Below, piece by piece: positions 23,136-52,580 of a DNA stretch of 64,000 bases. The DNA is taken from contig JBDHUY010000006.1 in the NCBI GenBank assembly GCA_039809385.1, positions 1 through 64,000 of the forward strand. The letters are read 5' to 3'. Numbering within the stretch: the first letter of the stretch is position 1; every line of letters starts with the position of its first letter. Source of the DNA: Candidatus Altimarinota bacterium. Lineage in GTDB: Bacteria; Patescibacteriota; Gracilibacteria; JBDHUY01. A program made the position numbers and the translations under genes. The notes beneath the pieces are model-generated. The model made no database searches. It was not told the origin of the DNA and saw nothing but the letters and a program-made list of their open reading frames with translations.

Positions 23136-23284
23136 AGAAGGAGGCAGAGATTGAGTAGAGAGTGTATGCGACAGGAGTATCAGAAGTATAAAGTATTACG
23201 TAGTAAGTATAAAGTATTTGGTATCAGACAGCGTTTTTTATCTTTCTCATCTTATTTTCTCCGTTTCAGATTCCCAACTTTAAG

Positions 23285-28125: not shown

Positions 28126-28276
28126 AAATGAAGAACTATTATACCAATTCCATTTCGAACCAAGACTACGCTACATCAAAGTAGATTTTGTAAAATGCGA
28201 AGAGCAGGTTAGGAGACCATACTCTTGCGATAATTTTTCATTTTACACTTTTCATTTTGCATTGCTCTGCTCCTCC

Positions 28277-33152: not shown

Positions 33153-33309
33153 GGAAAACATGAGCCCTCCCTTGATCGATAATTTACTATACCAAAACCA
33201 GCCCCTTGCTTCATACCCCATGCCCCAAAGAATGAAGGCTGAGCAGAAAAGGAAGGATGAAGCTTTTATACTTCATACTTGATACCTTATACTTTATACT
33301 TGCTCCCCC

Positions 33310-40191: not shown

Positions 40192-40316
40192 GGCAAGAGT
40201 ATGAGGTATTATGTATAAAGTATGGGAGACTCCTCAATAAGGTCGTAATGAACTGCTTAATTAAGAATACTTACTACTTACTACTTCCTACATTATACTT
40301 AATACCCCTGTCCCTC

Positions 40317-40619: not shown

Positions 40620-40715
40620 AAACCGCCACCCGTTCCTTTATAACGGATCTCTACAAATTCCCCTCTGTTTCCCCTTTTGACTTCGGACTTTTGACTTGTG
40701 ACTCATCCTCCCCGT

Positions 40716-50488: not shown

Positions 50489-50671
50489 CCATAAATGCGC
50501 TCGGCTTGAGCTTGTAAAATCTCATTTTTTTTGTATGCTAAAGTAAATATCAAAGCTTAAAAGTCACAGCTCAAAAAATTAATTACTTTCAGACTTTATT
50601 CCTCAGATCTAAGCATTTTTTACTAAGAACTTTTGACTTTAAGTACCTTATAAACTTTATAAAATCCTCCT

Positions 50672-51427
50672 ATGTCCGGACACAGCAAATGGGCCACCAC
50701 CAAACACCACAAAGCCATCGTCGACGCGAAACGCGGCAAATCGTTTAGCCGTCATTCCAAAAACATCATCGTCGCCGCGCGCTTGGGCGGCGGCGACCCG
50801 GCCATGAACAACGCGCTCGCCCTCGCTATCGAACGTGCTAAAGCCGACAACATGCCAAACGCCAATATCGACCGCGCCATCAAAAGCGGAACCGGCGAAC
50901 TGAAAGACGGGGCCGAAATCAGCGAAGTCATGTACGAAGGCTACGGTCCGGGCGGCGTAGCCGTGCTAATCCGAGTTTTGACCGACAACAAAAACCGGGC
51001 CGTCGCCAACGTCCGGCATACCCTGGAAAGCAGCGGCGGATCCCTCGGGACCAGCGGCACCGTCGCCTGGATGTTCAAACGCAAAGGCACTGTCACCATT
51101 CCCATAAACGGAAAAGATCGAGATTCGCTCACCCTCGAGTTGATCGATCTGGGTGCCGACGACGTCCAGGATCACGGAGATGCCTTACTCCTTATCACGG
51201 AAGCGACGAAACTTCCCCAACTGCAGGGGACGTTGAAAGAAAAGAAAATAGAATTTGCGAATCCTGCCGTGTCCTACATCGCCGACAATCTCGTTCCCGT
51301 AAACGACGAAGAAGTAGCCAGAAAGGTTCTTAAAATGATGGAAAAACTCGAAGAAGACGAAGACATCGACGAAGTATTCAGTAATTTCGATATGGAGGAG
51401 GGAGTGATGGAGAAAGTAATGGGGTAG
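50672..51427 (+). CDS. yebC: YebC/PmpR family protein
   Basis: MSGHSKW, YEGYGPGG, LTDNKNR. Confidence 0.96.
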   Translation: MSGHSKWATTKHHKAIVDAKRGKSFSRHSKNIIVAARLGGGDPAMNNALALAIERAKADNMPNANIDRAIKSGTGELKDGAEISEVMYEGYGPGGVAVLIRVLTDNKNRAVANVRHTLESSGGSLGTSGTVAWMFKRKGTVTIPINGKDRDSLTLELIDLGADDVQDHGDALLLITEATKLPQLQGTLKEKKIEFANPAVSYIADNLVPVNDEEVARKVLKMMEKLEEDEDIDEVFSNFDMEEGVMEKVMG

Positions 51428-51876
51428 CGGTCAGCGGCTAGCGATGAGCGGTTAGCAATACAAGGAACAGGATACGTAATTTTTTATGAGAAGTTATCAT
51501 GATAAAACTTCCTTTCACAAACCTCTCTATCTGGCAGAAAGGGATGCAATTGGCACATGATATTTATCAAATCGCTAAGAAGTTTCCCAAGGAAGAACTA
51601 TTTGGTATTACTTCACAAATGAGAAGATCATCATTATCGATCCCCAGTAATATTGCAGAAGGAAGTCAACGATCAACCGATAAAGACTTTGCCCATTTTA
51701 TTTCAATGGCAAGGGGATCATTAGCAGAACTTCAGACGCAAAGCATATTCTCGTATGAAGAGAACTATATTTCTGAATCTGAACACTACAGCATTCAGGA
51801 CAAGATTATCGAACTAAGCAAAATGCTACGTTCATTTTACAAAAAGCTAACCGCCGACCGCTAACCGCTGGTCGCT
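51426..51876 (+). mobile_element. Four-helix-bundle cassette bounded by 31-nt inverted heptamer arrays
   Basis: Left arm AGCGGTC AGCGGCT AGCGATG AGCGGTT AGC (51426-56); right arm GCTAACC GCCGACC GCTAACC GCTGGTC GCT (51846-76). Confidence 0.7.
51499..51864 (+). CDS. Four-helix-bundle protein (TIGR02436/23S rRNA IVS protein family)
   Basis: L.IWQK....A..IY....FPKEELFGITSQMRRS..SIPSNIAEG, F..MARGSL.EL.TQ. Confidence 0.93.
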   Translation: MIKLPFTNLSIWQKGMQLAHDIYQIAKKFPKEELFGITSQMRRSSLSIPSNIAEGSQRSTDKDFAHFISMARGSLAELQTQSIFSYEENYISESEHYSIQDKIIELSKMLRSFYKKLTADR

Positions 51877-51884
51877 TGTACCCT

Positions 51885-52580
51885 ATGGAAAGAAGGTTCT
51901 TCATTCTCAAAGCCATTGTCGAGAGTTTCATCGAATCGGCCGAACCGGTCGGTTCCAAATATTTGATGAAAAAATACGATATGGAAATCAGTCCGGCTAC
52001 CATACGGAATGACATGTCCGTGTTGGAGCACCTTGGACTAATCTACCAACCCTTTACCTCAGCTGGACGGATCCCCACCGATCTGGGGTTCCGTATGTTC
52101 GTCGACGAACTGATGGATGAGATCCCCCAGGTCCGGGAACTGAAACAGCAAGCCAGCGCGCAGATAAAAAGCCTGCGCCACGAAGAACGCGTCTACAATG
52201 CCGTGTCGCTTCTAGCCCGTACCTGCGACAATGTCAGCTTTGCCATGTTACCGGAGCAGCATCGCGCCTACTACCTCGGATTGGCTAATATCTTACGCAA
52301 ACCCGAATTCACTGAATCGGCCAAAGCCTATACTGTAGTCAAAATCCTCGAAGATGCCGACAATTTCATGGAGATCCTCAACAGTCTCTCTATCGACGAA
52401 AAAACCAAAGTATTTATCGGCCGGGAAAATGTCATTCCCGAAATAAAAAGCTGCAGTATCATCGCTACCCGCTACAGCATAAAAAACTATGGCTCGGGGA
52501 TCTTGGGCATCTTGGGCCCTATTCGTATGAACTACCCTTTCAATATTGGTGCGCTGGAGTATGTGAAGAAGGAGTTGTAA
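51885..52580 (+). CDS. hrcA: Heat-inducible transcription repressor (short form)
   Basis: AEPVGSK, SPATIRNDM, TSAGRIPT..G.R, GILGPIRMNY. Confidence 0.93.
   Translation: MERRFFILKAIVESFIESAEPVGSKYLMKKYDMEISPATIRNDMSVLEHLGLIYQPFTSAGRIPTDLGFRMFVDELMDEIPQVRELKQQASAQIKSLRHEERVYNAVSLLARTCDNVSFAMLPEQHRAYYLGLANILRKPEFTESAKAYTVVKILEDADNFMEILNSLSIDEKTKVFIGRENVIPEIKSCSIIATRYSIKNYGSGILGILGPIRMNYPFNIGALEYVKKEL

Follow-up and report, generated by a model that had tools for sequence, protein, structure and literature searches.

A four-helix-bundle gene between mirror-image heptamer arrays at the yebC-hrcA junction: one copy of a widespread insertion module that may spread without a transposase

We analyzed the junction between yebC and the heat-shock repressor gene hrcA in a 64,000-nucleotide stretch of DNA from a Candidatus Altimarinota bacterium (contig JBDHUY010000006.1, positions 1 to 64,000; C6:1-64000 in our contig numbering), referred to hereafter as the window. 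The host genome, assembled in 26 contigs and 1.87 Mb, has a G+C content of about 46% and is 95% complete. At the junction, a gene for a four-helix-bundle (4HB) protein is enclosed by two arrays of tandem heptamers, which are reverse complements of each other and which extend from the stop codon of yebC nearly to the start codon of hrcA (Table 1). Comparison with related genomes demonstrates that the two arms and the gene behave as one unit that has been gained, lost and moved, and the yebC-hrcA locus is not special in this respect, being one instance of a design that recurs across the protein family.

The insertion module spans positions 51426-51876 (451 bp). Its left arm opens at the AG of the yebC TAG codon and its right arm stops 8 nt (TGTACCCT) short of the hrcA ATG, a start codon whose product begins at the same residues as the HrcA proteins of relatives. 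The cargo stop codon (TAA, 51862-51864) lies, together with the last codons of the gene, inside the right arm. An inverted-repeat search returned arms of 31 nt with 81% complementarity and 389 nt between them, and our own count of the pairing gave 25 Watson-Crick pairs, 2 G-U pairs and 4 mismatches. An earlier reading made from the sequence alone (hereafter the sequence-only reading) had described the array borders, the number of pairs and the position of the cargo stop codon, and all three descriptions held to the base. The left array reads GTAGCGG TCAGCGG CTAGCGA TGAGCGG TTAGCAA, and the right-arm heptamers are GCTAACC GCCGACC GCTAACC GCTGGTC. Because the arms are periodic, the 31-nt register is the longest of several rather than a unique one, and a shift of 7 or 14 nt gives registers with nearly the same degree of pairing (80-88% complementary). 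The locus scored 16 in our flank aligner, compared with 10.5 for the 95th percentile of 147 shifted control positions taken from other loci. The TAG triplets of the left arm at 51425, 51439 and 51453 cover all three reading frames. Within the cassette, neither an internal promoter nor a terminator was detected by consensus scan, and neither open reading frames (ORFs) nor profile searches revealed a transposase in the unit; empty and filled yebC-hrcA sites are too diverged for a footprint to be read.

Table 1. Features of the yebC-hrcA junction, and the second cassette, in window positions
Feature	Positions	Strand	Basis or remark
yebC (YebC/PmpR family)	50672-51427	+	NF001030, 302.2 bits; stop TAG 51425-51427 doubles as the first TAG in the left array
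5' half of predicted stem extension outside the arrays (AUGGGGU)	51419-51425	+	predicted partner 51880-51886 (minimum-energy fold, dot-bracket reading)
Left (5') arm, ∼4.4 heptamers of type NNAGCGR	51426-51456	+	inverted-repeat search and array phase
Spacer between left arm and cargo start codon	51457-51498	+	no sigma-70-like promoter found (consensus scan)
Cargo gene, 121-aa 4HB protein (TIGR02436/PF05635, 23S rRNA intervening-sequence protein family)	51499-51864	+	profiles, 2GSC match, structure model
Right (3') arm, reverse complement of left arm	51846-51876	+	inverted-repeat search
8-nt spacer TGTACCCT and hrcA ATG	51877-51887	+	51880-51886 is the predicted stem base, paired with 51419-51425
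hrcA, heat-shock repressor gene, directly downstream	51885-52580	+	TIGR00331, 201.7 bits (cut-off 197.2)
Second window cassette, AAATTCT-type heptamers	arms 2065-2106 / 2465-2506 (42 nt, 79% complementary)	-	degenerate TIGR02436 gene

The junction was compared among relatives by searching 40 related genomes for HrcA and reading the best 29 loci outside the window genome. yebC lay directly upstream of hrcA at six of these 29 loci. Four of the six had a spacer free of arrays and of any gene, measuring 3 nt in G001, 2 nt in G015, 6 nt in G004 and about 18-21 nt in G024; in G001, which belongs to the same family as the window genome, the junction reads TAA-ACG-ATG. These tight, array-free junctions argue that arms and gene together represent an inserted unit, as the sequence-only reading had proposed in suggesting a search for empty sites, and the relatives did not, as that reading had considered possible, always carry the gene without inverted arrays. 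At the G005 junction we found a different 4HB cassette, whose arms (30 nt, 87%, TAGCT-type heptamer) run from the yebC stop codon into the hrcA ATG; its protein is 42% identical to that of the window, which is below relatives from other phyla, its gene contains an internal TAA, and the locus is partly masked. In G006, the junction is occupied by a hairpin that contains no gene; its arms measure 21 nt (90%) and its loop 60 nt, and it reaches to within 1 nt of the hrcA ATG. The tight yebC-hrcA junction has therefore probably been hit two or three times independently.

A profile search of the window genome yielded 11 TIGR02436 matches, corresponding to 10 loci, and by eye, on printed flanks, all 10 lie between inverted 7-mer arrays. 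The heptamer is specific to the locus (GTGGTNN, CAGCNNA, GTATNAN, AAAGTCN, AAAGTGA, AAATTCT and others). When the flanks were aligned automatically, leaving aside the C22 locus, which adjoins a contig end, seven of the nine loci scored at least 15, the two others being C5 (9.0) and C1 (12.0). Two of the 10 copies are degenerate, one being split (C8) and one truncated (C6:2226); the latter is the gene of the second window cassette, whose match covers 2226-2414 on the minus strand and profile positions 3-64 only.

To look beyond a single genome, we sampled the best 80 loci of relatives from one-genome-per-species contigs (40-63% identity), 75 of which had enough flanking sequence; their hosts are Bacteroidota, Clostridia, Pseudomonadota, Acidobacteriota, Verrucomicrobiota, candidate phyla radiation (CPR) groups and one archaeon. 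Controls were the 147 positions shifted by 800 nt in the same loci, and their 95th percentile (10.5) served as the threshold. A flanking inverted repeat above this threshold was present at 60 of the 75 loci, and at 44 of the 75 both arms reached a self-identity of 0.6 or more at period 7, versus 0 of the 147 controls. An excess of inverted 7-nt periodicity around TIGR02436 genes, the absence of which would have refuted the sequence-only reading by its own terms, is therefore a property of the relatives as well. Several of the loci without 7-nt periodicity carry arms with a period of 8 or 9 nt, and octamer or nonamer arrays such as AGTGATAA, AAGGTTGCT and GGAATAAT replace the heptamers in some cassettes and genomes (for example in G005, G093, G085, G013, G016, G036, G099 and G055, and at the G075 loci L130, L131, L136 and L137). 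No match to the 4HB gene was found among 50,697 phage records.

The arms share several further features. Four to five units per arm were counted in 56 of 88 arms. In the 5'-arm consensus heptamer, AG occurs at 42 of 44 loci (AG without CT at 35, CT without AG at none) and TAG at 25 of 44, as against CTA at 3, and C makes up 10.7% of the 5' arms. Since the two arms form a palindrome, this AG polarity is the same on both strands, and (T)AG-N4 units, or AG-N5, appear whichever end of the cassette is read inward in the 5' to 3' direction. The two arms are also mirrored unit by unit: heptamers that share an index agree at 6.03 of 7 positions, compared with 5.25 for other indices and 5.08 for different units within one arm, although some bias persists here since the best register had been selected. 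At 53 of 56 loci the cargo is oriented like the gene upstream of it, and at 42 of 46 like the gene downstream. The distance from the upstream stop codon to the 5' arm has a median of ∼3 nt, and at seven loci this codon forms the first triplet of the arm; the 3' arm mostly ends 0-30 nt ahead of the next start codon. Bridging from stop to start is the rule across cassettes and is largely to be expected of a unit that drops into a very short spacer.

Two candidate features were rejected as general ones. A TAG every 7 nt closing the reading frames, taken as the reason for the period, was only weakly enriched across loci, with all three frames closed in 19 of 40 5' arms where 13.4 were expected (column permutation; 17 of 400 permutations reached 19), and a conserved T-run after the 5' arm was present at just 8 of 60 loci.

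Period-7 arrays are not confined to the cassettes. At a threshold of 16 matches in 21, we counted 172 arrays in the window genome, versus 4-19 at periods 5-13, and 120 of the 172 lie mostly outside ORFs although our crude ORF calls cover 85% of the genome. Five AGs spaced by 7 nt gave 238 hits at 112 loci, versus 2 hits for a spacing of 8. We next surveyed 101 genomes sampled from the class, 58 of which contain TIGR02436. Across these genomes, the number of AG-period-7 hits correlated with the number of TIGR02436 matches (Spearman rho 0.78), the median rising from 3 hits in the 43 genomes without the gene to 15 with one or two genes, 44 with three to five and 68 in the 20 genomes with at least six. 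Within the taxonomic families holding both states, gene-bearing genomes had more hits in 10 of 11. With the Y1 transposase as a control for the mobilome, rho was 0.42 (partial 0.31), and the partial rho of the 4HB gene stayed at 0.76; of the 22 genomes with at least 60 hits, eight are without Y1_Tnp and one is without the 4HB gene. A Y1 transposase was accordingly dismissed as partner of the arrays, as the window genome has one weak match (22.7 bits) and the association over the 101 genomes is weak and non-specific. In most genomes the period-8 control did not rise above background (median 1 where the gene is absent), and all 10 genomes with at least 20 AG-period-8 hits carry 4HB genes, in keeping with the 8-nt arms of some cassettes. 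The gene count thus predicts the number of AG-N5 arrays in genomes of this class.

The gene-less arrays of a genome also tend to resemble its own arms. In the window genome, 76 of 163 gene-less arrays fall within one mismatch of one of seven arm types present there; with foreign arm types in sets of equal size, the mean was 25.8 and the highest value 63, and 76 was reached in none of 300 resamples. The arm type of the yebC-hrcA cassette (AGCGR) recurs at nine other loci of the genome. The result was replicated in G075, where two arm types accounted for 19 and 20 hits, neither type having a hit in any of four other genomes rich in arrays. The window itself contains further arrays at 1136-1168, 23184-23217, 28233-28263, 33265-33301, 40268-40305 and 40674-40703.

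Arm type was then set against protein lineage. The mean heptamer distance was 1.6-1.7 for protein pairs of at least 60% identity, versus about 3.2 for all others. The window copy, its closest paralogue (C5) and a copy from Peribacteria (L042) encode proteins that are 59-63% identical and carry AGCGG, AGTGG and AGCGG arms, respectively. At 4-fold sites, these three copies have the same third base at 38%, 28% and 32% of positions, which indicates that their synonymous sites are saturated, yet the core heptamer has been kept; among related proteins, the alignments thus show the core heptamer to stay the same despite synonymous saturation. The neighbourhood of L042, which lies upstream of a Y-family polymerase gene, differs from that of the window copy, so that AGCGG arms accompany a 63%-identical protein at another locus in another Peribacteria genome. 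A second arm type is common to two phyla, the heptamer GAGTGAC being shared by copies from Chthoniobacterales and Acidobacteriota with 68% identical proteins. Both cases fit the idea, put forward in the sequence-only reading, of a mobile unit that does without a transposase.

Several observations on individual arrays may be recorded here. Upstream of yebC, two heptamer or 14-mer arrays of opposite polarity (units TCAAAGCTCAAAAG and CTAAGAACTTTTGA) lie at 50550-50576 and 50609-50638 with no gene between them; by eye they gave the impression of a gene-less hairpin, which was discarded since no inverted pair was found at seed 7 and a minimum length of 14. Among gene-less arrays located no more than 60 nt upstream of start codons (crude ORF calls), the sense strand carries the C-rich CT type in 31 cases versus 8, and these start-proximal CT arrays mostly end 3-14 nt before the start, the Shine-Dalgarno position (for example 33265-33301, 28233-28263 and 40268-40305); they may serve as leaders for translation start. 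In the lepA (EF4) ORF (C2:136850-138877, 675 aa), an in-frame insertion of ∼75 aa just before the NLIDTPGHVDF motif consists of heptamer arrays, including AGCGGTC units, and a G+C-rich structured motif. The same motif occurs with arrays, again in frame, in a second long ORF (C2:40669-40790), these being its only two copies in the genome; an Rfam search of the two array-associated motif loci (E up to 1) gave a chance-level hit only. Finally, the single-contig genome G022, which reads TGA inside genes, has 29 Y1_Tnp matches, many of them identical, and only 9 AG-period-7 hits, and looks like a case of an IS200-type burst unrelated to the arrays.

Arrays that surround ordinary genes, and even run in frame through lepA, together with three genomes that bear arrays and no gene, are what one would expect if there were no functional link at all, that is, if the arrays were slippage-prone simple repeats and the 4HB genes merely survived in the same permissive spacers. 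This explanation, which we regard as highly improbable and which was already disfavoured, does not account for paired 7-periodic arms at 44 of 75 genes and at none of the shifted controls, for the array-free state of the empty sites in relatives, for an arm type that follows the protein lineage across loci and phyla, or for a contrast that holds within 10 of 11 families.

We turned to the protein itself. The cargo belongs to its family by a wide margin (TIGR02436, 130.4 bits against a cut-off of 24; PF05635, 136.4 bits against 33.8), and its structure model consists of four helices at a confidence score (pLDDT, predicted local distance difference test) of 96.1. The model superimposes on Xcc0516 (2GSC) with a template-modelling (TM) score of 0.91 and a root-mean-square deviation of 0.8 (sequence E 1.5e-21), and on BT_0352 (2RLD) with a TM score of 0.81. 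The fold that the sequence-only reading had ascribed to both this family and Avd, the accessory protein of diversity-generating retroelements (DGRs), was recovered, with a TM score of 0.77 to Avd (4DWL) and with matches to the Avd chains of the DGR ribonucleoprotein (8UBE, 8UB7). The crystal entries 2GSC and 2RLD contain five chains each, and Avd itself is, in the part of a DGR-complex preprint that we draw on, a pentameric, positively charged barrel similar to S23 proteins, one protomer of which touches an RNA duplex. The window protein is nevertheless unlike Avd in falling below both Avd cut-offs (NF033474, 35.1 bits versus 80; PF22296, 35.6 versus 40); no RVT_1 match for a reverse transcriptase was obtained in the 95%-complete genome, and no template/variable repeat pair was seen. 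PF05635 was the only match in the cargo, with no catalytic or transposase domain. Across 26 relatives at 40-63% identity, 21 columns are invariant, including Q40, R43 and S47-G55 (SIPSNIAEG), which argues that the protein is under selection.

Given five chains per entry in the solved homologues and an RNA-contacting pentamer in the related Avd, we infer that the 4HB protein is a ring-shaped nucleic-acid-binding factor. That it recognises the heptamer arrays is suggested by the correlation between arrays and gene count and by the gene-less arrays that match the genome's own arm types, and we would put the chance of this at even or somewhat below.

At the RNA level, folding of positions 51400-51900 (501 nt) paired the two arms in the minimum-energy structure (-133.9 kcal/mol), compared with a mean of -109.9 kcal/mol (sd 5.5) for 100 dinucleotide shuffles, none of which was as low (z = -4.36). 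In our reading of the dot-bracket string, the predicted stem continues for 7 pairs past the arrays (51419-51425 with 51880-51886), which would place the yebC stop codon and the first two bases of the hrcA AUG at the stem base. Such a stem, bridging the yebC stop and the hrcA start, had been anticipated from the letters alone; it very likely forms in the transcript according to the fold prediction, and as the genome also encodes RNase III (256 bits), cleavage of the yebC-4HB-hrcA transcript in the manner of an intervening sequence (IVS) is plausible.

The likeness to 23S rRNA IVSs is considerable. According to the part of PMC4990558 that we draw on, RNase III excision has been shown for 23S IVSs encoding S23p, and the 23S IVS of Coxiella bears tandem heptamers in its 5' arm at the RNase III site, in a copy number that varies between strains. 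There, as here, a PF05635/TIGR02436 ORF lies inside terminal inverted repeats with a stem of about 28-31 bp, an agreement in protein family and arm-ORF-arm layout with which the IVS-like insertion suggested in the sequence-only reading sits well. Long-stem terminal inverted repeats around an S23p ORF are thus present at our locus, and insertion into a 23S rRNA helix is not: unlike IVSs, which lie in helix 25 or 45 of 23S rRNA, the window module is hosted by an mRNA at a two-gene junction, its arms are heptamer arrays in their entirety with an AG-N5 signature, and it occurs in 10 copies per genome, each with its own heptamer, next to more than 100 gene-less arrays.

On a purely RNA-level account, the arms would exist only to form the stem, an RNase III cut would free the cargo mRNA and separate the yebC and hrcA messages, the protein would be dispensable baggage, and the arrays elsewhere in the genome would be unrelated products of slippage. 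The IVS-like family and layout with the excision and heptamers described for IVSs (PMC4990558, in the part drawn on above), the predicted pairing of the arms, the RNase III gene, the co-oriented cargo in which no promoter was found, and the two degenerate copies among 10 would all agree with it. Nevertheless, we consider this account unlikely. A stem alone requires no 7-nt period, no conserved AG and no core heptamer kept across saturation; the protein is strongly conserved, with 21 invariant columns in 26 sequences, and array abundance tracks the gene count. Moreover, stems under selection as sense RNA normally show G-U above A-C mismatches. Among the arm pairs of 57 loci, 1548 of 1779 positions are Watson-Crick, and the 231 mismatched positions comprise 36 G-U versus 57 A-C. 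It looks, from this comparison of arm sequences, as if the symmetry of the arms is maintained at the DNA level, or as if it is simply young. The period of 7 nt, the AG, the conserved core and the lack of a G-U bias are all left unexplained by a stem alone.

A different role for the arrays is suggested by ring-shaped RNA-binding regulators. HutP reads UAG-N4 repeats and TRAP reads (G/U)AG repeats, and the likeness extends to the fixed spacing of (N)AG repeats and to a unit number close to the number of ring subunits. By analogy, a 4HB pentamer could wrap the single-stranded (N)AG-N4 repeats of the 5' arm and thereby free or mask the 3' arm just ahead of the next start codon, tuning the translation or processing of hrcA and of other genes preceded by arrays, in which case the arrays would be a regulon and not mobile DNA. 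The fixed phase of the AG (42 of 44 arms), the presence of TAG in 25 of 44, the four to five units in 56 of 88 arms beside the five chains of the solved homologues, the predominance of the CT type among gene-less arrays before starts (31 versus 8, mostly ending 3-14 nt upstream) and a predicted stem base that covers the hrcA AUG are all in line with such a regulator. Against it, the palindrome gives both strands the same polarity, so that the sense RNA is not singled out; the arms are true mirror images (6.03 versus 5.25 of 7), which a set of binding sites would not need to be; gain, loss and passage between phyla affect the unit as a whole, which is how a mobile element behaves; and the same housekeeping junctions work in relatives without a cassette. 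The folds of TRAP and HutP are in addition unrelated to that of the 4HB protein, their repeats are not mirrored on both sides of a gene, and binding by the 4HB protein is putative. Taken together, a ring regulator of this kind strikes us as quite improbable.

The closest parallel to the arrangement as a whole is offered by repetitive extragenic palindromic (REP) sequences and their associated transposases, the RAYTs. In the part of PMC3116915 that we draw on, a RAYT is a single-copy gene beside its repeats, each gene with its own repeat flavour, and REP sequences lie scattered outside genes, frequently as inverted doublets that form hairpins (REPINs), their presence being tied to RAYT and their type co-diversifying with the protein. 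The 4HB cassettes resemble this system in that the gene is flanked by a repeat that is also dispersed, gene-less, in the extragenic space of the same genome. They differ in that a RAYT is an IS200-like HUH tyrosine transposase, whereas the 4HB protein has no recognisable catalytic domain (the cargo matches PF05635 only, and eight of the 22 array-rich genomes are without Y1_Tnp); in that the cassette repeat consists of tandem 7-mers and not of a ∼20-nt palindrome; and in that the 4HB unit is multi-copy and has been transferred between phyla.

Combining these lines of evidence, we favour, with a probability of roughly 0.6, a model in which the yebC-hrcA cassette belongs to a widespread insertion module whose 4HB protein recognises the arrays, in a relation like that of RAYT to REPIN and without a transposase; the anatomy and the evolutionary behaviour of the module we regard as nearly certain. 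In this model, the 4HB gene and two mirror-image arrays of ∼4-5 heptamers would together make up the mobile module, of which the window locus is one copy, placed within the few bases between a stop codon and the next co-directional start, with a cargo for which no promoter of its own was detected. The protein would recognise the arrays of its own cassette as well as the gene-less copies and would be needed for the spread or maintenance of arrays, paralleling RAYT and REP/REPIN; as it has no transposase domain, the chemistry would be left to enzymes of host replication or repair. Pairing of the arms in the yebC-4HB-hrcA transcript would give a stem of ∼38 bp that loops out the cargo and places the yebC stop codon beside the hrcA start, and this stem would be a plausible RNase III substrate, as in 23S IVSs.

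A number of results weigh against this module model. DNA contigs from 4 runs of 3 studies that cover both junctions contained no empty-site or copy-number variant, the cassette being unchanged in them, without other letters, indels or joints. Arrays occur without a TIGR02436 match in G081 (99% complete, 56 hits), G069 (88%, 91 hits) and G056 (25 hits), and PF05635 likewise gave no match over its cut-off in these three genomes. G026 has 34 AGCGR hits (AGCGGTG-type), and none of its six 4HB genes has AGCGG arms, its closest protein (54% identical to that of the window) having AGTGG arms; a strict rule of one protein for one heptamer consequently fails, and the AGCGGTG arrays of G026 may be orphans, or may depend on a protein that also serves a related heptamer. 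Since the genomes are related and hence not independent samples, the p-values make the case look stronger than it is. Heptamer similarity falls to background once protein identity drops below 60%, and shared descent could accordingly explain the covariation of arm and protein. The lack of a G-U excess among arm mismatches argues against selection for pairing in the sense RNA. The reverse order of cause and effect, with the gene accumulating where arrays pre-exist, is an objection that is weakened by the array-free empty sites.

A bolder extension, which we hold to be tentative and would sooner doubt than adopt, is that the 4HB (S23p) proteins are sequence-reading ring binders which, with their arms, form a new class of transposase-free mobile elements. 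The cassettes would then act as autonomous elements and the gene-less AG-N5 arrays, in their hundreds, as non-autonomous ones, and host enzymes would copy both through template switching or synthesis templated by the hairpin. If true, this would cover the ORF-bearing rRNA IVSs, the function of an uncharacterised family and the intergenic excess of heptanucleotide repeats.

Such repeats, short tandemly repeated repetitive (STRR) sequences and other heptanucleotide repeats, are known in heterocystous cyanobacteria and other prokaryotes, and heptanucleotide repeats in prokaryotic genomes were reportedly treated by Mrazek and colleagues in 2007. Our arrays resemble STRRs in being tandem 7-nt units in few copies, mostly intergenic, with an excess at period 7; STRRs differ in that they are not known to come with an associated gene or an inverted-pair architecture. 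Plasmid-borne homologues of the cargo are concentrated in Nostoc (17 of 42 records), Calothrix (4) and relatives. On plasmid pANA02 of Anabaena sp. 90 (NC_019429.1 43880-45012), a gene annotated as a four helix bundle protein lies between cas6 and cas4, with long AGGTGAC/AGGGAAC arrays upstream and CTGTCAC arrays downstream; it interrupts a CRISPR-cas operon, and the host is cultivable.

ORF-bearing 23S IVSs and their excision by RNase III, heptamers in one IVS (PMC4990558, in the part drawn on above), the protein's fold and its relationship with Avd are already known. In the literature that we searched, no paper linked the PF05635/TIGR02436 family in general to flanking heptamer arrays or to array abundance, the Coxiella IVS description being the sole exception. 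New are the AG polarity, the co-orientation, the absence of a wobble bias, the saturation test, the 101-genome correlation with its controls, and the matching to own arm types with its exceptions.

PF05635/TIGR02436 is a large, widely distributed and uncharacterised family with two crystal structures. The present data tie together three loose ends, namely heptanucleotide arrays, ORF-bearing 23S IVSs and the 4HB family, and they open the family's function to a direct test, namely whether the protein binds its own array. They also point to a candidate mobile element that would spread without a recognisable transposase. For annotation, the warning is that a structured insertion may lie at operon junctions in CPR bacteria, Bacteroidota, cyanobacteria and Clostridia, and that such an insertion may affect the coupling of the flanking genes, here that of the heat-shock repressor gene hrcA.

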